The notes under the pieces were generated by a model. It made no database searches. It saw only the letters and a program-made list of their open reading frames with translations, and was not told the origin of the DNA. Shown piece by piece: positions 3,104 through 56,471 of a stretch of 62,155 bases of DNA. The DNA lies in the IMG/VR virus record IMGVR_UViG_3300017448_000004, positions 1 through 62,155 of that record; one strand, given 5' to 3'. The position numbers and the translations under genes are program-made. This stretch comes from a virus. Its lineage: Duplodnaviria > Caudoviricetes. The number at the start of each line of letters is the position of its first letter. Positions within the stretch are counted from its first letter, which is position 1.

Positions 3104-3364
3104 TCAATTCTCCGATACTTGAATTGCAGGATGATTCAAAGGAACGGAATGACCCGGCTGATGGCGGAATTCTGGTTTTGTAAATAGCCCATGCACGGGA
3201 GCATTCTTGGTACTCATTGACGCTCCATTAAGTGGAGCGTTGCTTACGTCGCCCGTCCATGCATGGGCCTGCACGGGAGGCTTGACTGGGTCGGTATCGA
3301 GTTGGGGACGAAGCCCTTTCGGATTTGGAATCTGTTTTCCTCCGATGATAATATCTTCTGGCAT
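3104..3364 (-). CDS. hypothetical protein
   Basis: ORF in operon register with SD. Confidence 0.5.
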   Translation of the reverse strand: MPEDIIIGGKQIPNPKGLRPQLDTDPVKPPVQAHAWTGDVSNAPLNGASMSTKNAPVHGLFTKPEFRHQPGHSVPLNHPAIQVSEN

Positions 3365-3622
3365 ACTTTATCCTTCCCTGCGCGACTTTGACCACAACCG
3401 GCCATGCGCGACAGCTAGCGTAAAAGCTAACGCGATTAGAATGATTTCTAGTTCACTCATATGTATCCTAGGTGCTAGTGGAGTCCCGGCCTGTCCACTT
3501 GCTCGAACGGATGAATGACGATGGGCTTTCGCCAGCACCGACCGGACGTTCATGTTCGCCCGTTAGGACGAAACTTTTGTATTCCAAGAACTGTACGCCT
3601 ACCAATTTTTTGTCCAGTTAGA

Positions 3623-3943
3623 TCATCCATTAAAATTTTCTAATTCCTTCTCAAGTAGGGCCATAGCTCTCCAAGCCAATTTTGCAGAGTGACGCACCCC
3701 ATCTGAATCAACCGTCCCTCTCTGTAAGAAGTGCCGAATGAGCGCATCCGCCTCATCCGTACTCTTTGTTCTGTCCCAATGAAGAGGGGCGTTCGGCCCA
3801 TTATGTTGTATATTCCCTACATAAGATACATGGGAAACTTCCGCCGCCGCAAGCGGGAAATAATCAAGAAACCCAGTCCCGATAGGATAAGTTTTTCGTT
3901 CCTTCGGGTCGGTTACCAGCACCACGTCTTTCTTATCGGTCAC
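3623..3943 (-). CDS. dATP/dGTP diphosphohydrolase-domain protein (DUF5664-like)
   Basis: RK..P...G.LDYFP.A..EV..VS..GN.QH, LHWDR.KS.D..DAL.RH, HSAKLAWRAMA.LE. Confidence 0.8.
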   Translation of the reverse strand: MTDKKDVVLVTDPKERKTYPIGTGFLDYFPLAAAEVSHVSYVGNIQHNGPNAPLHWDRTKSTDEADALIRHFLQRGTVDSDGVRHSAKLAWRAMALLEKELENFNG

Positions 3944-14270: not shown

Positions 14271-17200
14271 TTAGCCCTCTTGCACGTAGAAGCCGTACAG
14301 AGTGAAAGTTTGCAATTCATTGATCACATCCTCTGCGGGCCACTGTACCATTACCTGACAGTCTGTGATCGCCGCTGATTCTTCTGGCATGTCTGACAAA
14401 TAGAACCGTTGCGAATACCATGTACGGCTAGGCTTCAATTCGGGTGGATCGTTTACCCAATGCTTTAATATCTCAAATGACCCTTTATAATAAGGGAGTG
14501 CATCATCAAGAAGTAATCCCAGAACTGCGGGAGACCCTGTAAGGACAGACTTCAGTGTGACAAACTGGAGATTTGCTATCTGACCCGGTTGCACGAGTAC
14601 ATACGAACCAAAGACAGCAAAAGCGGGATAAGGCGTCCCGACGACTCCTGTTCCGGGTGTCAATGACAGAGTAGGAAAAGTAATCGTCTCGGTCGTAGTC
14701 AGAGTGACAAACCCTGCGGTTGTCGCCAGTGCACGGCCATTAAGATTTCCACCACCAAGAGTGATACCCGAATATGCCATGATCGTTCCGACCATGTTGG
14801 ATTGGATACCGTTCCAAATAGAAGTAAATGCAGAACCGCATACCCAATAGACGTTGCCCGCTTGCGCACCGTTTGCGAGTATTACGGATGCTCCGCTTTC
14901 GAGAGTGATCGTAGACCCTGCGACGAATACAAAGATTGCCCCCGTGTTTCCTTGAGCATCGAGAGTTATACTCGTAGGAATGTCGAGACTACTTCCACCT
15001 TTATAAACGCCCGCAGTGTAAGTATGGTTGTTGGCACCATTACCCGAAGTGCTCAGATCGCTTAGACCGCTTAGCGTAGCTGGCAAACCGCTGTAATAAA
15101 TAATAGCTGCGGTAAGATCAGTTTGGGCTTGGAGGGCTATGGCGTCGGCATAATTAAACACGCCGGGGGGCGTCAGGGTACTGGGTGGAAAATTCGTGAC
15201 ACTAGATGCATTGTTCGGATAGATGCCGATGTTCCCGCCCGAGATTACAGAACCTGCTCCTGCACTGCCTGTAATGGCCGAACCTGCTAGAATATCAAAC
15301 CCAAAAGCAGTCCCCAAATGGTTTGCTGGAGGAGTCGCAGGAGTGGACACTAACGTCCCACCATCTGTCGAGGATGTAGTGTCTCTGTACAGAATGTAGT
15401 GAGGCGCACCATTGTTCGGAGCACCAAGCAACAGGTGATGAACGCCGGGGGAAGTCTCGACTGCCTTAATAGCTCTGACGCCACCTTGAGCAGCGATAGT
15501 CGCGAACGGACTCCATGATTGACCTAGGTCAGGAGCCGGATTGTTGATGAATCTATACCAGCCGTTCATACCATCCGCCACAAACCAACCCACATCTTGG
15601 CCGCTGGTATAGCTGGCGACATAGACGTTAGCTGGAAACCAATTCTGGCCGGGTTGCCTATTTCGTAGAGTAAATTGATCCGCGATAGGGACGCTTTCGA
15701 TTACCCCGCCCGCTGATGGGCTGAAGGTAAGGAATTGGCTATCAGTAGTAAAAAATCCGATAGTAGGACCATTCCAGTCCAGAGCGTTGTAGCTGCTGAT
15801 TCCCACGCCCGCTGCGTACACGTACGACGGTTCTAGGTTACCTTGTCCATCATCCGGTATCATATAAATATCTGACACCGTGAGAACCATAAGACCTAAT
15901 GCCGTTGGCACGAGTCTCTTTACAAGCGAAGGCATCTTATCAAAGTTGTCCGGGGAAAAGCCGTTAATCCCATTGCCAATTGGGGCAAGAGGGCCATTCG
16001 TCCAGAACACCGTGTTGCCGATGCTGTAAAAAATACGGTTGAGATGATAGGTGAGATTCACTGCACCGGGTAGCGGTGGAGTGTTCTCAAATATGGCAGC
16101 GGTCGCTTGTGTGTCCAAGCCTAGGTCCGGTGTCATATCCACAAATCCATTCTGCAAATACTGTACGAGTGGAACAGTGTAAATAGTATTGCCAAACCCC
16201 GGAATAAGCAATTCGGTCGTAAGCCCATCCGCCGTTCGGAAGATCGCAACATAATCAGCTTGTGGGTCAATTGACGCAGTAGCTAACCCTGCACCGGGGG
16301 CAAACGTAACTTGTCCATTTACGATTGGTCCTGTCGCCGCACTCAACGGTCCAATATTGGAGACCGTGTTGTCAAGGGTGTTTACAAGAGCAATTGCATA
16401 TATAAATCCCTGCGTACTGGTCGCCGTGATCGTACCCGCAATTATCGTACGAATTACGACATTCCCTTCATTGATCCACTTGAGCGTCCCGTTATCCGTG
16501 GTAATACTATTCAATCCGGCCTTGTTCCAAGTAGGGGGAGTCGTTCCTGTTACTCCTGTTTCGATAGCTCCTTCTTGAAAACCGTTGGAATCTACGATGT
16601 TCGTTCCGGGTAACGTGTAGTTTACGTTTGGGTACCGCGCAAAATCCGAGACAGGGCCGATGTTTACCCACGTATACGCCGCACCGTCATGAACGATGTC
16701 AGCAGTACCAAATATGATTTCTTGCGCGGCGGCATTGTATGTCGCTCCAGCAAGCGTAAAAGCGGGCCAAGCGGGGGCAGACGTTCCGCTAATTGAAGGT
16801 AGGGTAGCGATGGTCAAACCATTCGCCTGAAAAAGCATTTCACCGGGGTCGCCGTTTCCGTTATTATCCCAGTTTACATAGTCTATTTCTACCTGATACA
16901 CTCCGGGCACGGTGAATGTCCAAGTCGCGGTATCCGTAACAATGGAGAGGGGTGGAGCATTTCGGGTGTTCGTGCCGCAAAGATTCTGGCCTGTTCCTAC
17001 TTGTGTAGGCCCAGAACCGAACCCCATTTTGACAGTTATAGTATGTACGGGTGAATGTGAATCCGTAAAACCGCTTCCTTGATTCAGGGAAGCGTTGTTA
17101 TTAGTTACATCATCGAATGAGAAAAATGCTCCTCCGCTTTGATGTACAAGGTTAAAAGTATACGATCCTGCGACGGGAATATATATACCGGCTACAATGG

Positions 17201-27714: not shown

Positions 27715-28920
27715 CTACGAGGTTCCGCCGGTGACCGTACATATCAACTCGGCACTGATACTGTCGATGGGCGTTTCGTCCATGACCGTATTGACATCCG
27801 TGAGAAGCGTTCCTTCCGTATTCAGGAAAGTCGGAATCTGGAATTCAACTACGCACTGTCCCGCGACTCGACCGCGAACCGTCCACGGATTGCCGTCTGT
27901 GTCATCGACGGAGACGGGGGCGAAGTAAGTGTTACTGTACTTGCCCGCGTTGGATGGTCGATACCAAGTCGGATTGCTGCTCTGGGGGACGTTGTTAAGC
28001 ACGATTGCGTTCCACCCTGATCCCGATTGACCGGAACCCGCTGCAGGTGCCGTGATGTTGTCAGTAGTACTCAAGGTGACTGCTCCCGTGTTGGCAAGCG
28101 CCCTTCCTGCGAGGGTTCCGCCGCCGAGCGTGATTGTGGTGTGGGCCAGAATCGAACCGACCATATTGGAAGTACCGCCAAAGACGCTAGTGAAAGAACT
28201 TCCGTTCACCCAATAAACGTTCTTTGCCTGTGCGCCATTCGCCAGAAGAACGCTCGCGCCAGACTCCAACGTGATGGTGGAACCCGCAACGAACACAAAC
28301 ACCGCGTTCGGATTCCCCTGTGCATCCAGAGTGATGGATGTCGGGATGTCGAGACTGGAAGCTGGAGCAGAGAAATAGTTTCCAGCCGTGTACGTGTGGT
28401 TATTGGCACCGTTGCCGCCCGTTGAAAGATTGGATAGACCTGATAGCGTTGGAGGCAGTGCTTGGAATAACACGATAGCTGCGGCCAAATCAACCTGAGC
28501 CTGTGTTGCGGTTGCGTCTGCGTAATGGAATACACCGGGAGGCGTCAGGGTGCTTGGCGGAAAATTTGTGACAGACGTTTGGTTATTCGGAGAGATTCCG
28601 ATATTCCCACCCGAAACAGTAGACCCCGCTCCGGTACTTCCCGTAACTGCGGATGCACCAAGAATCGCGAAGTTAGCTGCCGTTTTAAGAAAAATATCCA
28701 ACCCACCCCCACTACTTCCGACCGTTGCACCCGCGTCGTCAATGGCCGAAGATGTTACAACAACGGACCCACCAATAGGGATGTTGACGGTGTACTGGGC
28801 GACACCCCGCGTGTTGGCAACGGGGGTATAGGTTTGCACTACGCCCGTTCCAGTCAATTTTACTGCTGCTGCAACGCCGAGACCGCTCGTAGGAACGCCC
28901 CCGACACTTGAGTTACTCAT
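27715..28920 (-). CDS. putative decoration protein with inserted DUF3494 ice-binding domain
   Basis: FAILGASAVT, AQVDLAAA, ITLDAQGNPNAVFVF, GAQAKNVYW, G.ILA.T.ITL, GRALA..GAVTL. Confidence 0.8.
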   Translation of the reverse strand: MSNSSVGGVPTSGLGVAAAVKLTGTGVVQTYTPVANTRGVAQYTVNIPIGGSVVVTSSAIDDAGATVGSSGGGLDIFLKTAANFAILGASAVTGSTGAGSTVSGGNIGISPNNQTSVTNFPPSTLTPPGVFHYADATATQAQVDLAAAIVLFQALPPTLSGLSNLSTGGNGANNHTYTAGNYFSAPASSLDIPTSITLDAQGNPNAVFVFVAGSTITLESGASVLLANGAQAKNVYWVNGSSFTSVFGGTSNMVGSILAHTTITLGGGTLAGRALANTGAVTLSTTDNITAPAAGSGQSGSGWNAIVLNNVPQSSNPTWYRPSNAGKYSNTYFAPVSVDDTDGNPWTVRGRVAGQCVVEFQIPTFLNTEGTLLTDVNTVMDETPIDSISAELICTVTGGTS

Positions 28921-28961
28921 AGACTTCCTTTTCTGAAAGAGCCGTTGCTCTTGTCAATATT

Positions 28962-29549
28962 TCAGTAAACGTGGTCACAGGCTAACGGCATGCCTGCTTT
29001 GTACTCTACAATTTGTTTGCACTTGTTCAAAAAATCTTCTAAAGAACTGGTTCTCTTCATAAAATTACATATCTTACAGCAAGGTACACAATTAGAAAGC
29101 ACATATCCTATAGAGTTATTCAAACGGTCGATACCATTATAGCGATATGGGGTTTTGCAAGAGGCCCCTTGATATGAATACTCAGGGGCATCTCCACAAT
29201 AAAAACAAACTCTAGAAGTGATCTCCCTAAACTCTTCGGAAGATAGAGAAAATACTAAATCTCGTTTCATCGCTTGCCATTTATAGGTTACCATCATCTG
29301 GTTCATAGAAGCGACCCCGACAGGCAATGTATTATCCCTACTCATCGTACGGGCTTTCTCTTGGGAGGAAAGTCGCCGCAAACAGCCGCAGCTTTTCTTT
29401 TTACCTTCTCTAAGAGTCTTTCCTGTACCGATACAAGTTTTACCGCATTCACACTGGCAAATCCAGCGGGAACGGTTGTGTTTTGATTCCGTAGAAGCTA
29501 TGACCGTTAATAGGCCGAACCTCTCGCCAACTAAGTTGGGCTTATCCAT
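28962..29549 (-). CDS. HNH homing endonuclease
   Basis: GERFGLLTV..W.C.CECG..SCGC; CFYCG...NGIDR.NN..GY...NCVPCC..CN. Confidence 0.85.
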   Translation of the reverse strand: MDKPNLVGERFGLLTVIASTESKHNRSRWICQCECGKTCIGTGKTLREGKKKSCGCLRRLSSQEKARTMSRDNTLPVGVASMNQMMVTYKWQAMKRDLVFSLSSEEFREITSRVCFYCGDAPEYSYQGASCKTPYRYNGIDRLNNSIGYVLSNCVPCCKICNFMKRTSSLEDFLNKCKQIVEYKAGMPLACDHVY

Positions 29550-29600
29550 AATTATCCTCAATCCTCAGTATGGGTGAATGATAAGCACTCACCCATACTA

Positions 29601-29629
29601 AGAATATCACTTTGTCACTGCTTTGTCAA
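29601..29629 (-). promoter_or_regulatory. sigma70-type promoter followed by a long 5' hairpin
   Basis: TTGACA-N17-TATTCT with extended TG; stem AGTATGGGTGA/TCACCCATACT immediately downstream. Confidence 0.7.
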
Positions 29630-31603
29630 CTAGGAGATTGCAGAGGCTGCATCTATCTGTCGCTGGCGTATCGTAGTATCTGGGCCGAGCGACGTTGTGA
29701 AGTGCACACGGTAGCTGGTCCATCCAGGGATCAACCCTTCCGGATCGGCTACAGTTGGCTCAGCATTCTGCACGATCTTGCATTCGCTTTATTGTTACCC
29801 GTGCAAGGGGATCAGTCATTTCTGCTGATCTCTTACGGTTTCATTCCCGTAATGATCGGACTATCGCACCGCCCAGAAGGGCGTCTTTTCATTTAGTCTC
29901 TCACGGTCGCCGTAGCGTTCCGCCTTATTCCCATCTCAGGGTTCAAGTCAATTAGAAAAGATTTTTTAACCTACATAACTTTCATTAAGTAGGACACCGA
30001 ATTGATGTTTCTCCATTCTCCGTCACCGAATCCGGTATCACCCTTTGCTCCGAGGTTGATGGAGAAGATACCATCGCGACCGAAGATGTAGGTGCGGAGT
30101 GCGGTCAGACCTGTAATACCGCTGTAATTCGAGGTCTGAGTGACCAGATTGGTCTGGTAGAAGTCCACGCCCGTAGAAGGCAGCGTGATGACTTCAGTCA
30201 AATCAACCGAGACGAGACTGTCCATCTTCATCTGGCCCACCGGAGTGTGCTTCAGAATGTCGATTGGGGAATCGTTGCTGTTGTCAGCAAGGACATCACC
30301 CAAAGCGAACGGATGGATAACGCCTGCGAAGCTCTTGGAACCTTCGTCGAACGGGCGCACGCTACGACCCGCCAGCGATTGGACGCTGTTACGAATCTGA
30401 GAGAGCGACAGAGCGGTGAAGCTAGAAGTGCTCGAAGCAGCCAGTTCAATTAGAACCGACGCGTCGATGCTCGATGCACCGTCAGCGGTTGCACGCACAA
30501 GTGCGGACAACGATTCGCCAAGACGGTACGACATTTCACGAGCAACGTTCTCAACGGTGTTATCAATCGCGGTAGCCAAACTCAGCGAACTGAAGTTCGC
30601 GTAATCGGCGTACTCACCGATAGTCGCGGTGGTCGTAAGAACACTGACAGACAACGAAGAACCGACCGTACCTTCCGTGGTCTGTGTGGTGTTAGCGGCC
30701 AACGGAACGTACATGAACATTTCATATTGATTACCACTGTTCATCGGAAGATCGAGACGTTCCGAACATGCGACGAACGGTGTTTGTGCCTTACAAATTT
30801 GTTATTGTTATCTCCATCACTGGAGTCACATTCTACATGTCGCCATGTAGTTCAGACTCTATCTTTACGGCATCACTGCCGATGTTCGACGTATTAGTCG
30901 TTGGGGATGCACCTACGCTCAGCATTGCTTCTTCGTATTTCTTCGCCACTTGACTACGTGAGGAAGCCTTACGATTAAATACTGAGCACCGTCTAGCAAG
31001 GTCAAATCGCTTTACATTCATGTCCCATGTTAAAGGAGTTCTAATGTACTCTAAAGCGAGTAGTGCCTGTTCTCTCTTGAGAATTAAATACGGCAATATC
31101 TCAAGAATGAATGGTTCACGAGCCTTGCCCCGAGGGGCTGTCCATTGATAACCCGGACGTGTTGAGTTCTTCATGGTGTGTTCATATTGTGCCCCACCAT
31201 AATGAAACTGCAACCAATCAGTAAGCCGCTTATCGCCTTGATAGGCAGATATTTCCAATACAGGACGATAGACGAATTTATTTTGACGCTTGTCAAAACG
31301 CTTCGAGATGTAAATAGATATACATCCTTCGCCGTCTATTATCCCCGCAGCATACCCATTATTTTTGGATTGCATTGGAGCCTTTCCTCCGTCTCTGCTC
31401 AAAGAGCCTTTGACGGATATAGTCGAATTTTAAGAACCCTAATGTCAAGGTTCTCACGGAACTTTTTGTCATACCTCTATATTACCACACTCGACGGAAC
31501 TTGTCAAACTGCCTATCTACGGTTTTCCGTGTAAGTCCTATGAAAACTTTACCGTGGACTGGGGCAAGTTAGAAAGCTGATTCCCGGCGGGCGAAAATGC
31601 CAT
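29630..31603 (-). CDS. major capsid protein (N4 gp56-like), 343 aa when spliced from exons 31603-31544, 31473-31448, 30793-30005 and 29786-29630
   Basis: joined exons give one frame MAFSPAGNQLSNLPQSTVKF|YDKKFRENL|KAQTPF...LPMNSG...EG...EYADY...IHP...GEWRNI|ECKIV...ADPEG..PGW.SY; directly after the scaffold gene. Confidence 0.88.
29787..30004 (-). ncRNA. group I intron, ORF-less (capsid intron 3, 218 nt)
   Basis: 5' exon ends in U, intron ends in G; P1 ACAU/GUGU; P10 AUUCG/CGAAU; P7 GACUA/UAGUC; removal restores frame. Confidence 0.9.
30794..31447 (-). mobile_element. group I intron carrying a LAGLIDADG homing endonuclease (capsid intron 2, 654 nt)
   Basis: P1 GAACCU/GGGUUC with U.G; P3 UUCGAC/GUCGAA; P7 GACU/AGUC; terminal G; removal restores ENL-KAQ. 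Confidence 0.9.
30833..31375 (-). CDS. intron-encoded single-motif LAGLIDADG homing endonuclease
   Basis: YAAGIIDGEGCISI; ILPYLILKREQA; 3' end runs into the intron core. Confidence 0.92.
   Translation of the reverse strand: MQSKNNGYAAGIIDGEGCISIYISKRFDKRQNKFVYRPVLEISAYQGDKRLTDWLQFHYGGAQYEHTMKNSTRPGYQWTAPRGKAREPFILEILPYLILKREQALLALEYIRTPLTWDMNVKRFDLARRCSVFNRKASSRSQVAKKYEEAMLSVGASPTTNTSNIGSDAVKIESELHGDM
31474..31543 (-). ncRNA. 70-nt group I-like mini-intron lacking a catalytic core (capsid intron 1)
   Basis: contains in-frame TAG, length not a multiple of 3; P1 AAGUUU/GGACUU with U.G at junction, P10 UCAUA/UAUGA, ends in G; no P3-P7 elements. Confidence 0.7.
31479..31507 (-). promoter_or_regulatory. 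sigma70-type promoter inside the mini-intron
   Basis: TTGACA-N17-TAATAT with extended TG, same class as other promoters in this genome. Confidence 0.7.
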
Positions 31604-31624
31604 AAGGGGTTTCCTTTCAACAAC

Positions 31625-32593
31625 TTATCGACGAGGACGTGGGGGACGGGTTGCTTCCAACTCGTTCACACGTTTGACAAACGCTGGGTTTGTCATAATC
31701 TGCTTCCGATAATCTTCGGAAGGCATATCGTCGATCATTTTCAGAGTCAGTGCTTCCGTGTCGCTTGTTGGCATCGCACCACCCACTGGGGCAACACGAT
31801 TGTTCAAGCCTGACGGAACATGACTCTGTCGCTTTTCTTGCGGCACCGGAGCCTCGTTAATTCGAACGGGTTCCACTGCTACAGCCTGCGGTTCCGGCTG
31901 TATTTCCGCCACGGGAGTCACAACTTGCGGTTGTGGTATCACTGGCGGAACCTCACGCACGATAGGAGAGGAAAGAAGCAATCCGGCTTCTTCCATCTTT
32001 GTTTGGGCAAATTCAAAATTTCGAACGGATGGTTGTAGCCCCGTCTTCGTCATCCATTCACAGACCGTGTTAATATTCTCGTTGCACGCATAAAATTCTG
32101 GGTGCCGTTCGAGCCATACTTCAGCATTCTGACGAGCCATAATCTGCTTCGTCTGTTGCTGTTGGGTGTTCAATGTATCGCGCAATTGCGCGGGTGGGAC
32201 GCCGAGCGAAGACTCTAGGAGCCTATCGCGGGCGGACTCAAACTTCTCTGGATCGTTCATATCCTGAGAGATCGCATACCGTTCTTCAGTGGTAAGGGGC
32301 TTCTCCTTGAACTGGATAATATTTGAAGTTAGTTCTAGGTCCGTGGGCAGGGCGTCTACTTCGGGCGTGCCAAGGCGAGCCTTGCGTTTTACATCACGCA
32401 TACCAAGGATAGAATTGCTATGGGCTTTTTGCAACTTCTCAATCAACTCGTCCGGGGTGGTATAACTAAATCGTTGCAAACCGCCAACAGCCCTGTTGTG
32501 TTCGTCTACTGGCTGGTACTCGTGCCACTTCACTTTTGTCGTAGGCGCAACTACTGGCGCGGTCACTTCTGGTACCACAATTGTTGTATCCAT
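31625..32593 (-). CDS. capsid scaffolding protein
   Basis: helical acidic protein immediately upstream of the capsid gene; Pro-rich linker and C-terminal ID.MP...Y motif. Confidence 0.75.
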   Translation of the reverse strand: MDTTIVVPEVTAPVVAPTTKVKWHEYQPVDEHNRAVGGLQRFSYTTPDELIEKLQKAHSNSILGMRDVKRKARLGTPEVDALPTDLELTSNIIQFKEKPLTTEERYAISQDMNDPEKFESARDRLLESSLGVPPAQLRDTLNTQQQQTKQIMARQNAEVWLERHPEFYACNENINTVCEWMTKTGLQPSVRNFEFAQTKMEEAGLLLSSPIVREVPPVIPQPQVVTPVAEIQPEPQAVAVEPVRINEAPVPQEKRQSHVPSGLNNRVAPVGGAMPTSDTEALTLKMIDDMPSEDYRKQIMTNPAFVKRVNELEATRPPRPRR

Positions 32594-32607
32594 ACACTCC
32601 TCCAAGG

Positions 32608-32940
32608 TTACTGCAACTCAGGTATATCTGTCGCGTTCTCAATCCGTGGTTTCCGGTTGGTGTAAGCGACAATCTGGCACTCGCTCTCAATCTTTTCCAT
32701 GAGTGCCGTATAAAATTGAGCCACCCCTTTTGCGATGAAATGGGCGGCGAGAACTTCTTCTTGCTTCGCGGGATTGGTATCAAGCAATTTGAAATTAAAC
32801 TTTCGAACTTGGTCTTCCATAATCCGCTGCATTACTTCAAAACCACGTTGCTTTACGCTTGCGGCTAGAATTCCACGCTCGTCATCCGTCAATTCCAAAT
32901 TAATGTCCAATCCTTTAAGTTCGTTGGTCACTTTCAGCAT
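32608..32940 (-). CDS. small helical head-assembly protein (post-portal gene)
   Basis: position between portal and scaffold; GGAGGAG SD. Confidence 0.55.
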   Translation of the reverse strand: MLKVTNELKGLDINLELTDDERGILAASVKQRGFEVMQRIMEDQVRKFNFKLLDTNPAKQEEVLAAHFIAKGVAQFYTALMEKIESECQIVAYTNRKPRIENATDIPELQ

Positions 32941-32957
32941 GTCTCCTCCAAGAGTTT

Positions 32958-33617
32958 CTAGTGAGTAGCAGTATCCAACTGATCTGGTGTAAAGGCCAAA
33001 GGTACGTCTAAACTATCCGCAGATTTATCACCCATAGAGGTCACTGCAACGATATTTCCATTTTCATCAAATACCCCCGATCCGGAATCTCCCCCAAAAG
33101 TTGGCAGAATGAAGTTTTCAAACTGGACTTTTAATGCGGGGTCCAAATCTTTTTCGGTGTCATATTTAATGAAGTATCCACTTCGATAAACATCGCTATT
33201 GTGTCCGGGTGCTCCCCAGATATGGACCGATTCATTTGGAATCAGGGTACGTTCATTAATACTGGCCCATGTCTTGAACGTACGATCTACGAGATATATT
33301 ACATGGTCATTCCCATCAATTATCGCGGCAGCAATGTGAATCGGGTCTTTCTCGGAATCCAACCTGATTAGATTGCTATCAAAGAAACAATGTTGGGCTG
33401 TTAAAATAGCGTGTGGACCTACGACAGTTCCGGAACAGTGACCCACTTCTTGATCCCACGTATCTCCTTTTTCCAAATCATAAATCGCGATACGATGGGT
33501 AGTTGCGTGCTGTTGCTCGATTGCCGTTTTTGTTACGATGGATGCCATTACTGGTTCGGTTGTCGGGGCAGACAAACCCAAAGCGAGCATGAGTACAAAT
33601 ACAAAAGTTTTCAACAT
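32958..33617 (-). CDS. secreted trypsin-like serine protease
   Basis: signal peptide MLKTFVFVLMLALGLSA; CSG..V...AILTAQHC; GGDSGSGVF. Confidence 0.85.
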   Translation of the reverse strand: MLKTFVFVLMLALGLSAPTTEPVMASIVTKTAIEQQHATTHRIAIYDLEKGDTWDQEVGHCSGTVVGPHAILTAQHCFFDSNLIRLDSEKDPIHIAAAIIDGNDHVIYLVDRTFKTWASINERTLIPNESVHIWGAPGHNSDVYRSGYFIKYDTEKDLDPALKVQFENFILPTFGGDSGSGVFDENGNIVAVTSMGDKSADSLDVPLAFTPDQLDTATH

Positions 33618-33643
33618 AAGGTTCTCCAAACAGAGCATATATT

Positions 33644-33812
33644 AAACTGGTTCCACTATTATCGGAGCCTCTGTTCCAGTTTGTACCCATATAGGGGTTG
33701 ATTAGACGATAAACGGCCCCTATATGGGTACAAACTGGTTCCACTATTATCGGAGCCTCTGTTCCAGTTTGTACCCATATAGGGGCCGTTTATCGTCTAA
33801 TCAACCCCTATA
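33644..33812. repeat. nested inverted/direct repeat with perfect 49-bp arms
   Basis: 33690-33738 is the exact reverse complement of 33764-33812; 54-nt direct repeat at 33644-33697 and 33732-33785. Confidence 0.95.
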
Positions 33813-33815
33813 AGC

Positions 33816-36148
33816 CTATTCAACGGTCGGTTGCATCCCCTCTAATCCCCCCGTAGACGGAACTCCCTCCACAGATTCCGAGAGACCCGAGGCTTTAGCG
33901 GATGCAATCACTAAATCTCGTTTAATACGATTATTAGTAGACTGATCCTCCAACTCCGATTTCTGTTGGAATTTCTGTTCTACGCTTTGCTGCCCAGCTT
34001 GTATCTTCTGGGCGTTGAGCGCGGCTGGGGAATTCGCTTTGTACTCCTGAATTTCTTCAGGAGTCATCGGCACAACAATATCATTACCGTTCTTCCACTC
34101 GCTGGCTTCCATCCACATCTTAAAGACAGAGAGGAAGTCAACCTTCTTCCCTTGTTTAGCGAGCGACTCTATCAACTGAGGATTGTCTAGGAACTGTGTA
34201 AGCATAGTCATGGACTGGGCCATGGTACGCTTCGCGGACATACTCGCGCCCGCGAGAACTTCGAAGTCCATGACTGCATCCCAATAATCTTGCATGCCTA
34301 CGGATTTCGCTAATGGCTTGCCAAGCACGTCACCCAGAATGTGAAGGATGGTCGCGTCTGACATTTTTGTGAATACGAGTTCGTCCATGATGTACAACCA
34401 TGGTTTGAACACTTGCTCGATGAAATTGTCCAACGGACCATCGAGCCGTGTCGCGCTCGCGGATGCTTGAATTGCAGCACCACCAGAAGTACGACCCATG
34501 GAGGACCGTGGCCCTGCTGAACTGCCCTGAACTAACTGTTGATCCGCTCCAGATGAGGACTCAGTCGATTGCTCAGATTCCCGCAATGCCTGCCAAGTAT
34601 CGGAGGGCACTTTCGGAGTTTCCATGAGCGTAAAGGCTTCCTTCGTGGGACCATCGACGGTCATGACTTTTCCGACGCTGGTCTTAATCATCTGGGTGAA
34701 GTTGTTCCCGTCACGCTTCTTCAGATAGATCGGGTTGACACCATACGACAAAATTTTGAGAATCGCGTTGATCGTACCTTGATCAACTCTTTGATTCTGT
34801 CCGACGATGAGACCCAGACCCATTCCATAAAATGACTTCGGTCTGTTCCACCAGTTTGCAGATAGGAACGGTACGCGTTTGAATTCGTTGTCGCCTGCGT
34901 ATAACACTTTCTCGCCCTTTAGGACGATGATCTTTTGTTTACCATCCCAATACTCAAGCACTTCCAGTTTGGTCATCAACGGATTAGGCGTATTACCGAC
35001 GTTGGAATCTTGGGCATGATGGACGGCACCCTTCATGTACAGGGCTTGCTCGACCATTTGGTTTGGCGCGGACGGTGATTGCACTGCCCACATTTCTTTT
35101 AGATTCGTAGGGAACGTCCATCCCTCCATTACTGCTGGATTGATTTTCGCTTCCTTTTCCAATGCAATACGGATAGAATCTACTTCGTAAAAGTCCATCG
35201 AACGAACGTCAATAGCCCACCGCACTTCGCGGATATCTGAGACGTTTAGTTTGGGATCGAGAAGCACTGCGTCCAACGGACGATGTTCAAAGAACGGCAT
35301 CGGGACGACCTTAGTCGTCACAGTGATTTTCGGCGGTTCATCTGTGGGAATTGTAACTGTCGTTTGCTGGCCGTCAGGTCCGACTTTCTCTGCGATAGCG
35401 GCGGCTTTACGCTTAGACGTTGTAATCTCAGTCCAATCGTAACCCCACTTCCAGATTCCCGTACCGAGATGGGCCATCGTTTCGAGGCCCCACTTCGTCT
35501 CTGTCTTGAACTTACTCTTATCAAGTATGTATGAGAACAAAGCGGTCTTCGCGTCCGTGATCTCCTGCTTGACGCCGGGACGCGGGCGAAGAATCATTGG
35601 CGGGTCATCGTAGAACATGCCCTTATACAATTGTGGAACGACTGAGTTGCAAATTTTCGCAACGGTAAACCTTACAACATTGGGTTCGAGAACGTACGTG
35701 TTTTCATAAACCGTCATTGGACGGGGTGCTTGGAATAGAAGGTCGGCATCCACCGTTGTTGCTGCTAGCACCTAGCAGGATAAGTCATTTCTGCTTATCT
35801 CATACGGTTGGATTCCCGTATGGTCGGACTATCGCATCATGGTTTTCACCACGCCATCTCATTTAGTCTCTCACGGTGCTTTCGCTTCCGCCTTATTCCC
35901 GTTTCAGGGTTCAAGTCAATTAGAGTCAGTTTTTATCTGGCGCAATACTCTTAACGCCAGAGGAGATTCCACTGTTTATTAAGTAGAAAATCCCGTGCTG
36001 CTTGTGCAGATTGAACTACAATCCCCAAATGCGTTGAAAGATCGTCGGTTATTTCTTTGATCTCTCCCGATTTATTAAAATTCTCGCCAGTAATAGATGC
36101 ATTCGGATTTCCGTCCACTACTAGTTGGCCATCAACTAATTCTGGCAT
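33816..36148 (-). CDS. portal protein, about 709 aa spliced from exons 36148-35954 and 35750-33816
   Basis: HLGTGIWKWG, LEVLEYWD, FYGMGLG, ESSSGAD P22-like portal motifs; exon join QWNLLWR|DADLLFQ. Confidence 0.88.
35751..35953 (-). ncRNA. group I intron, ORF-less (portal intron, 203 nt)
   Basis: P1 CUGGCGU/GCGCCAG; P10 GUAUU/GAUGC; P7 GACUA/UAGUC; terminal G; core homologous to 29787..30004. Confidence 0.92.
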
Positions 36149-55110: not shown

Positions 55111-55551
55111 ATGGAAGACATGGACAAAGTCCGAAAACGACAACGTGAATGGGTCGCAAAGCGTAGGCAGGAGTGGTTTGCTTCAAATGGGCCTTGTAAA
55201 AGTTGTGGGGCCGTTGAAAATTTGGAACTCCATCACGTTGATCGTTCGACGAAAGAAGAACACAGAATTTTCTCTTGGGCGGTAGGCCGTAGAGATGCGG
55301 AACTGGCTAAATGCATCGTACTGTGCCACGATTGCCATGTGATAGAGACGGCGGGACAAATAAAGGAATTTCGTCCCGTCAATCACATACATGGCCGACA
55401 AACAGAATATCGTCGTGGTTGTCGTTGCGAACTTTGTAAAACCGCAAAGCATAAAGCCATAAAAGATGAACGTATGAAGAAACAAGCAGCGGTTGTGGAC
55501 GGCGGTTCGAATCCGCCCATCTCCACTGAGAGCACGGTATGCGTGCTTTGA
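55111..55551 (+). CDS. HNH endonuclease overlapping the tmRNA acceptor piece
   Basis: CKSCG..NLELHH.D...K...ELAKCIVLCHDCH; HG....Y..GCRC..CK. Confidence 0.8.
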   Translation: MEDMDKVRKRQREWVAKRRQEWFASNGPCKSCGAVENLELHHVDRSTKEEHRIFSWAVGRRDAELAKCIVLCHDCHVIETAGQIKEFRPVNHIHGRQTEYRRGCRCELCKTAKHKAIKDERMKKQAAVVDGGSNPPISTESTVCVL

Positions 55552-55728
55552 GTGGGGATGAAAGGCATTCGACATGGCTGATTTGTTTGTTTTGGACGTT
55601 CCGTGCTGACGTGGCACACGTACTCTAGACACGTAACTATCAAATGCTACCAAGCCTTTGACTTTTGCAGCCGCCGCAGGGCGCTAACTGCTAACGGGTC
55701 TGACCCACCTAGGAACAGAACGGGTCTT
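55478..55728 (+). ncRNA. ssrA: circularly permuted two-piece tmRNA
   Basis: acceptor piece T-arm GGCGGTTCGAATCCGCC-CATCTCCA (to 55525), intervening hairpin, coding piece GGGGATGAAAGGCATTCGAC from 55554, G3.U70 pair, tag frame 55646-55687. Confidence 0.88.
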
Positions 55729-56210: not shown

Positions 56211-56471
56211 ATGAAAGTTACCGTTGTTCCAGCATACGTAGGTCAAAAACACACTGTGAAATTGACACAGGGCGTGCAATCTTTTCATCTCGATTATCAA
56301 GGAACGAAGACCGATTGTCTTTGGTACGCAAAAATGTTTCGCACGGCTTTACGAAATCACGATGCCGCTGTAGCTCAGTCGGTAGAGCGCCTGCCCTGTA
56401 AGCAGGATGTCGGGAGTTCGAATCTCTCCAGCGGCTCCAACCCCTTACAACTTCACGGAGCCAGTCTGTGA
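56211..56471 (+). CDS. hypothetical protein whose frame runs through tRNA-Thr
   Basis: AGGAGG SD before MKVTVVP. Confidence 0.45.
   Translation: MKVTVVPAYVGQKHTVKLTQGVQSFHLDYQGTKTDCLWYAKMFRTALRNHDAAVAQSVERLPCKQDVGSSNLSSGSNPLQLHGASL
56364..56439 (+). tRNA. tRNA-Thr(TGT) with encoded CCA and atypical C33
   Basis: acceptor GCCGCTG/CAGCGGC, D-arm GCTC/GAGC, anticodon arm CCTGC-CCTGTAA-GCAGG, TTCGAAT T-loop. Confidence 0.88.

Follow-up and report, generated by a model that had tools for sequence, protein, structure and literature searches.

The IMG/VR virus record IMGVR_UViG_3300017448_000004 is a linear viral contig of 62,155 nt (Caudoviricetes; estimated completeness about 65%), which is taken here over its whole length and referred to as the window. 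Terminase, portal and head genes lie on its minus strand, and among named phages the one closest to it is Tunturiibacter phage Tunturi_3, an isolated podovirus with an acidobacterial host (PMC11924767), in the main text of whose description the word 'intron' does not occur. The major head protein gene of Tunturi_3 (gp6, N-terminus MGYTPAGNLQGNLPQSTVKFYDKKFRENLKAQTPFVACSERLDLP) is uninterrupted, and spliced alignment against it divided the capsid gene of the window into four exons, separated by a 70-nt insert and, further downstream, by two longer introns (intron 2 and intron 3, Table 1). The insert belongs to a family of short elements, here called mini-introns or minis, which share one architecture, recur in related capsid genes, covary with their exons, co-occur with full-length group I introns, and sit in genes under purifying selection. 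The family probably consists of tiny introns that keep only their splice-site helices, and the use of a downstream ribozyme that we propose for them would be undescribed in nature.

Read on the minus strand, the insert splits the capsid codons between TVKF and YDKK, which are contiguous in Tunturi_3, so that the uninterrupted gp6 reading (STVKFYDKKFRENLKAQTPF) fixes both junctions. It opens with TCA TAG, an in-frame stop, and its length (70 = 3 × 23 + 1) shifts the reading frame, as an initial annotation of this DNA had proposed. That annotation also placed a 26-nt exon (YDKKFREN..) between the insert and intron 2 and pointed out that skipping this exon would join exon 1 to exon 3 as TTT-TAA, and both statements were confirmed. 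The end of exon 1 (GTAAAGTTT, 31552..31544) pairs with a segment of the insert (GGACTTAC, 31538..31531) as the helix P1, with six contiguous pairs counted from a U.G pair (contiguous core AAGTTT/GGACTT) and two more beyond one bulged A. The first five nucleotides of the insert, TCATA (31543..31539), pair in all five positions with TATGA (31473..31469) as the helix P10, which gives a P1+P10 sum of 11, and the insert ends in G at 31474. Each of these boundary features had been claimed, and each was recovered on the sequence.

What the insert lacks is the catalytic core. Neither the P3–P9 core nor the guanosine-binding (G-binding) P7 pseudoknot is present, and an Rfam scan of 28500..32000 at E ≤ 10 gave no match of any kind within the insert and, across the scanned region, none to small self-cleaving ribozymes (hammerhead, twister, others). 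A core motif scan of the window gave matches at 29854 and 35822 and a weak one at 16234, with none in the insert, of which only about 57 nt are left beyond the guide. Without the core that defines the class, the insert is not an autonomous group I intron. The initial annotation had likewise seen no P3–P7, and related minis are as short as 33 nt, a length too short for a G-binding site, so that such a mini cannot be autonomous. We also considered an exon-like repeat, given a sense-strand resemblance between the mini interior (AAGTTCCGTCGAG) and exon 2, and dropped it: the resemblance was weak (p about 0.015, 2000 shuffles) and not general, as sense similarity to the respective coding sequence reached p ≤ 0.01 in only 1 of 15 other minis.

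Related capsid loci were sampled as 80 of 243 in IMG/VR and 80 of 225 in metagenome contigs, and were aligned by dynamic programming with long insertions allowed, using the Tunturi_3 coding sequence as the reference (r-numbers are its positions; L-numbers are loci). The 161 rows reduced to 117 distinct alleles, of which 91 had no insert, 26 had at least one full intron (at least 198 nt), and 15 had mini-inserts; the full intron of L152, counted among the 26, was missed by the aligner and read directly. Uninterrupted KFYDKK alleles, which the initial annotation had expected among relatives, are therefore the majority. Sixteen unique minis of 33–94 nt were found at seven sites (r60, r66, r93, r906, r911, r921 and r940), and all 16 have a P1 of 6–10 contiguous bp from a U.G pair, a P10 of 4–7 bp with its guide immediately 5′ of the P1 3′ strand, and a terminal G. 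Their P1+P10 sums range from 11 to 15, compared with a mean of 2.6 for cross-site pairings (n = 649), and a sum of at least 11 arose by chance in 1 of the 649 cross-site pairings and in 0.5% of 3200 shuffles of the 16 minis. Placing the boundaries so that U precedes the insert and G ends it restored the local peptide in 68 of 71 insert rows, including every mini row, and for 66 of those 68 each residue at the junction also occurs in relatives that lack an interruption. The other three rows are large introns (L081/L145 at r92, 1005 nt, and L156 at r155, 650 nt), for which no G-ending boundary preserves the conserved peptide and which apparently end in A. The window's own site (r60) is occupied in L148 and L151 by a 40-nt mini, which shares the TCATA loop and shows a compensatory P1 change, and in L062/L132 by an intron of 687 nt; r66 and r93 likewise hold full introns in other alleles. 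The earlier expectations that a full-length intron might occupy the window site in relatives, and that P1, P10 and the terminal G would be kept with covariation in P1, were thus borne out.

The guides of the minis track their exons. At r60, P1 takes the states GAAGTAT/GTACTTC (L148), CAAGTAT/GTACTTG (L151) and AAGTTT/GGACTT (window); at r906 it reads CGAGCCT/GGGCTCG in L052 and TGAGCCT/GGGCTCA in L061; and at r940 three states occur (CCTGGAT/GTCCAGG, CCCGGAT/GTCCGGG and CCTGGTT/GACCAGG). Synonymous changes in the exon are matched at all three sites by compensatory changes in the mini guide. Once minis and introns are removed, the capsid open reading frame (ORF) is open and of full length in 14 of the 14 carriers examined, although in L156 one large intron has to be removed at a boundary without G. 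Between carriers with a mini in common, the ratio of nonsynonymous to synonymous substitution (dN/dS) is 0.04–0.10 at dS 0.7–1.3, indicating that their capsid genes are in use.

Minis were found only in the company of full introns. A full intron lies 26–101 nt downstream of the mini in 18 of 18 mini events (17 detected by the aligner and L152 read directly), representing 10 distinct site pairs, and within 110 nt upstream in only one of the 18. Every allele with a mini also has a full intron; the two-by-two table of minis and full introns as computed (14/11/1/91, Fisher p = 1.3e-10) holds a single 'mini without full', which is L152, whose helper the aligner overlooked. Intron 2, the proposed helper in the window, matches Rfam Intron_gpI in its 3′ part with 24.7 bits (E 0.002), below the gathering threshold of 50. 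Its internal guide sequence, GGGTTCT, lies at 31439..31433, and by eye it has the J8/7–P7–P9 motifs of a family of approximately 200-nt introns, with the tail ..AACAAATTTG; the covariation test described below covered the ~200-nt family only. The ORF of intron 2 (31402..30833) matches PF00961 (LAGLIDADG) with 17.7 bits (E 0.0068; cut-off 23.1) and phrog_5046 (E 1e-16), which is labelled 'HNH endonuclease'.

Twelve ORF-less introns of ~200 nt form one aligned family (A1), in which P3 covaries (6 of 7 pairs), as do P6, P9 and P9.1, and the P7 pseudoknot GACTA/TAGTC is invariant. Overall, 88% of cells in this alignment are paired compared with 72% after shuffling, and none of 500 shuffles scored as high; P8 is visible by eye, and its 17% pairing reflects misplaced columns in the scoring. 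Judged by this comparative evidence, the ~200-nt downstream introns are genuine group I introns. The window holds three full introns, namely intron 2, intron 3 (with P3, P4–P6, the P7 pseudoknot, P9 and P9.1) and one in the portal gene. In the full introns downstream of minis, P10 comprises 0–3 bp at r86, r156, r161, r956 and r992, and 5–6 bp at r981.

A further helix would connect most minis to the surroundings of their neighbour. When the reverse complement of each mini interior was compared with the whole of its own coding sequence, the best matches fell repeatedly just before the 5′ splice site of the downstream intron. We scored this putative bridge over the last 30 exon nucleotides before the helper 5′ splice site (Watson–Crick pair = 1, G.U = 0.5). 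Scores of at least 6, ending 5–10 nt from that splice site, were obtained for 12 of 16 minis, that of the window included, and for 11 of 186 non-cognate pairings, and scores of at least 7 for 10 of 16 and 2 of 186, respectively. The bridge abuts the 5′ strand of the helper P1, and it covaries: before the r992 intron, the exon versions ACCAGAT, ACCGGA and ACCCGACA are accompanied by minis with ATCTGGT, TCCGGT and TGTCGGGT, and each of three unrelated minis (r906, r911 and r921) pairs with exon r940–950, before the r956 intron, in the version found in its own allele. In the window, CACGGAA (31531..31525) pairs over 7 bp with TTCCGTG (31461..31455), and the helper P1 strand AGAACCT comes next. 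The proposal in the initial annotation that the insert borrows a catalytic core is supported, at the level of sequence, by the 18 of 18 downstream full introns and by this covarying helix, which in most minis leads to the exon abutting the helper P1. The notion that the bridge stands in for a missing P2 of the helpers was dropped, as family-A introns without a mini also lack P2.

The reach of the family was explored with other scans. A third contig scan yielded 60 new locus ids and no further carrier (these are outside the counts above), and among the 161 loci no uninterrupted contig resembled the spliced transcript of any carrier, the maximum exon identity being 96.2%. A homology-free mini search was abandoned because forward-strand matches were no more numerous than reverse-strand matches. 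A stricter homology-free scan (P1+P10, terminal G, bridge and open frame) beside 87 family-A introns (80 unrelated phage contigs) returned five candidates, two of them the known capsid minis and the other three at the control rate (3 per 261 positions), and the minis are accordingly documented for now in this capsid family only. Two further features of the sampled loci were noted. One subclade (L061/L131/L146) has 12 extra nucleotides in frame at r758 of the capsid coding sequence (CCCCGG.AC.GG), which look like an ordinary indel, and several metagenome contigs (the start of L084, the end of L088, and others) start or stop exactly at intron sites (r86, r981), a pattern suggesting that alleles with and without the intron occur together in the populations sampled.

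With a confidence a little above even, we read the mini as a substrate-only group I intron that would be spliced by the core of a neighbouring intron, to which it would be tethered. The chemistry of splicing, the catalyst and the succession of events are inferred from sequence, as follows. The mini would retain an internal guide (P10 loop and P1 3′ strand), a short interior and the terminal G, having lost the P3–P9 core. Its P1 hairpin, the bridge and the helper P1 would form a junction on one continuous exon strand, so that the bridge would put the splice sites of the mini at the mouth of the helper core (intron 2, 26 nt downstream). The helper core would then dock the mini P1, and guanosine would attack at the U.G pair (31544|31543); with P10 holding exon 2 in place, the terminal G of the mini (31474) would enter the G-site and exon 1 would be ligated to exon 2. 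The helper would subsequently splice itself, the same core docking the mini P1 first and its own P1 second. The upstream-only placement of minis would follow if an intron could serve its neighbour only for as long as it remains in the transcript. As to origin, a mini most likely represents the decayed upstream member of a closely spaced pair of full introns, surviving through complementation by its neighbour. Decay of a full intron is supported by the 72-nt r66 mini of L012 (3198..3269), which still aligns to the 5′ P3–P4 part of the full intron that L066 carries there (3313..3928; TCTTGTCGTA..GATTGA.TT.GGA). The feasibility of such splicing is indicated by an engineered Tetrahymena 'spliceozyme', described as excising core-less introns in trans in E. 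coli (PMC4094466). Separately, the r92 intron of L081 lies upstream of another full intron and has the guide (GTTTGGGCCTT) that is also found in the 33-nt minis of this site; the intron may represent an intermediate on the way to dependence.

Several points weigh against tethered splicing by the neighbouring core. Removal of the mini is deduced from the comparison of DNA sequences, a search for RNA sequencing runs covering 29600..31650 having listed none, the window and every carrier are metagenome assemblies rather than isolates, and no natural precedent is known, natural core-less group I introns being undescribed in the searchable literature (most subscription journals are outside its coverage). 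The presence of P1, P10 and the terminal G is by itself not evidence of function, since an internal deletion of a full intron retains both ends by construction and these features alone therefore prove little; the case rests on covariation and selection. The only other exact copy of the window's mini, in L003/L083, is not an independent lineage, as it lies inside a block in which L083 and the window are 100% identical (29738 to about 31940, 2.2 kb, in a comparison of 29738..33737) before identity drops to 77–90%. That block comprises the capsid gene with all its inserts and about 330 nt upstream, and is either a mosaic that arose when a capsid gene laden with introns recently passed between diverged phages, or a chimera created in assembly. 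The bridge of the window is not individually significant (p about 0.10 against shuffles), its position fitting the family pattern, and the canonical bridge is absent in 4 of 16 minis (L148 and L151 at r60; L012 and L027 at r66). The minis of L148 and L151 pair with their own 5′ exon, and the tail of the r66 minis pairs with the helper 3′ exon at +8..+19 (12 bp in L027, p 0.008; 9 bp in L012).

Moreover, use of the adjacent core in cis is not distinguishable from use of a core in trans combined with tight genetic linkage. In the latter case, which we regard as unlikely, the group I chemistry would be the same and the mini P1 would be docked by any group I intron in the infected cell, whether excised or not yet spliced (intron 2, intron 3 or that of the portal gene); closeness to a full intron would then be genetic linkage, a mini parted from its helper by recombination being lethal. 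Capsid mRNA is abundant late in infection, which counts for a catalyst in trans, as do the three full introns of the window and the minis lacking a canonical bridge. Trans excision by group I ribozymes also works in vitro and in E. coli, as reported for engineered systems (PMC2532722, PMC4094466). However, linkage alone does not predict a direction, and the nearest full intron is always downstream of the mini (18 of 18 events, 10 site pairs); the covarying bridge abuts the helper P1, and even the r66 minis, through the helper 3′ exon, contact the flank of the neighbouring intron.

It is quite improbable, in our assessment, that the insert stays in, the carriers being dead capsid alleles (decayed introns in defective genomes riding on co-infecting helpers) or assembly artefacts. 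The metagenomic origin of all carriers, the retention of both intron ends in any deletion derivative, the possibly chimeric L083 block, and contig ends that often fall on intron sites, pointing to population polymorphism able to confuse assemblers, would all fit such an explanation. It is countered by the occurrence of 16 different minis in 15 alleles from many assemblies, by the intact neighbouring genes in the 62-kb window, and by guides and bridges whose compensatory changes follow synonymous exon changes, carrier ORFs free of frameshift or stop, and the low dN/dS, a combination unlike that of dead alleles or assembly errors. Handling of the insert by something other than group I chemistry, that is, by ribosomal bypassing or by cleavage and ligation by host or phage proteins, seems barely plausible. 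In the T4 gene 60 bypass, a short non-coding gap in a phage gene has a stop codon next to a hairpin at its start, and the stop codon and hairpin right at the start of the present gap recall it. Yet matching take-off and landing codons occur in 0 of 16 minis, the YDKK frame has a TAG two codons ahead of TAT, and at r940 and r911 the mini interrupts a conserved codon (e.g., T|GG for Trp), which hopping cannot restore; translational bypassing was rejected on these grounds. Also against such handling are the U.G pair, the P10 next to P1 and the terminal G, features specific to recognition by a group I core, and the lack of Rfam matches to small self-cleaving ribozyme families in the scanned region.

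Table 1. Layout of the interrupted major capsid gene in the window.
Feature	Positions	Strand	Description
Capsid exon 1	31603..31544	minus	20 codons, MAFSPAGNQLSNLPQSTVKF; last 9 nt (31552..31544) form the 5′ strand of the mini P1
Core-less mini-intron	31543..31474	minus	70 nt; L1/P10 guide, P1 3′ strand, bridge segment, terminal G
Capsid exon 2	31473..31448	minus	26 nt, YDKKFREN + CT
P10 target TATGA in exon 2	31473..31469	minus	
Bridge target TTCCGTG in exon 2	31461..31455	minus	
5′ strand of helper P1, AGAACCT, in exon 2	31454..31448	minus	
Intron 2, proposed helper	31447..30794	minus	654 nt, LAGLIDADG-type ORF
Capsid exon 3	30793..30005	minus	starts TAAGGC
Intron 3	30004..29787	minus	218 nt, ORF-less group I, conserved ~200-nt family
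Capsid exon 4	29786..29630	minus	stop codon included

Other features of the window were recorded alongside the capsid gene. The portal gene is split by an ORF-less group I intron of the ~200-nt family (35751..35953, minus strand, 203 nt), with its 5′ splice site after CTGGCGT at 35954 and its terminal G at 35751, such that the 'GTG start' of a 651-aa ORF at 35771 is an artefact inside the intron; there is no mini upstream of it. Directly after the terminator-like hairpin of the capsid gene (29573..29604) lies a free-standing ORF similar to HNH/endonuclease VII (28962..29561, minus strand, 199 aa; phrog_1035 and phrog_374, E about 1e-16), a candidate homing endonuclease directed against the intron-rich capsid gene. 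The plus strand encodes a permuted two-piece transfer-messenger RNA (tmRNA; 55468..55681, Rfam 71.4 bits, ARAGORN tag peptide ATKPLTFAAAAGR) and a tRNA-Thr(TGT) (56364..56436), which point either to a tmRNA carried by the phage or to a junction between prophage and host.

Autonomous RNA catalysis has its textbook example in group I introns, and to our knowledge natural group I introns each carry their own core or rebuild one from pieces. On balance, we lean towards the view that phage capsid genes harbour natural substrate-only group I introns, down to 33 nt, which would have ceded catalysis to a neighbour and pair beside its P1, one core serving two introns in turn. If this is true, a division of labour between 'substrate' intron and 'catalyst' RNA evolves in group I as well as in group II lineages, which in group I would parallel the transition by which introns that splice themselves came to be spliced by a shared machine. 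Its evolution would be visible in one gene family, where full/full pairs, full/mini pairs and ever smaller minis stand side by side, and guide, tether and terminal G would together offer a compact natural design for the programmable excision of RNA segments. For annotation, phage genes with 'frameshifting' inserts of 30–100 nt beside introns may be intact.

Compared with full-length phage group I introns (introns 2 and 3, L062 at r60, L066 at r66), the minis are alike in the P1 U.G pair, in a guide that also forms P10, in the terminal G and in their insertion sites, and some still align to the 5′ part of a full intron at the same site. They differ in lacking the P3–P9 core and G-binding site at 33–94 nt, in a P10 (4–7 bp) longer than most of those of the full introns downstream of them, and in an added segment that pairs with the exon beside another intron's P1. 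The gap in T4 gene 60 is similarly short, lies within a structural or essential phage gene and starts with a stop codon and hairpin, and is set apart by its matched take-off and landing codons and by the split codons of the minis at two sites. In the split (trans-spliced) group I introns of organelles, splicing depends on non-contiguous RNA parts; there, however, the pieces reassemble one core, whereas in the mini system one complete core would serve two separate introns. Engineered spliceozymes and trans excision-splicing ribozymes resemble the proposed minis in that a group I core excises a core-less segment and joins its flanks (PMC4094466, PMC2532722), and they are artificial and pair with their substrate through their own guides, whereas the minis are natural, carry their own guide, and would present a preformed P1/P10. 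A natural parallel is provided by the group III introns of Euglena chloroplasts, described as degenerate group II introns of 90–120 nt that number more than 150 per genome and whose core is presumed to come from RNAs or proteins acting in trans (PMC4424553). Both are self-splicing introns cut down to their boundary elements with the core missing; the Euglena introns, however, are of group II origin, reside in organelles and have, in that account, no identified helper, whereas the minis would be of group I origin, reside in a phage gene, and have a candidate helper 26–101 nt away with a covarying tether.

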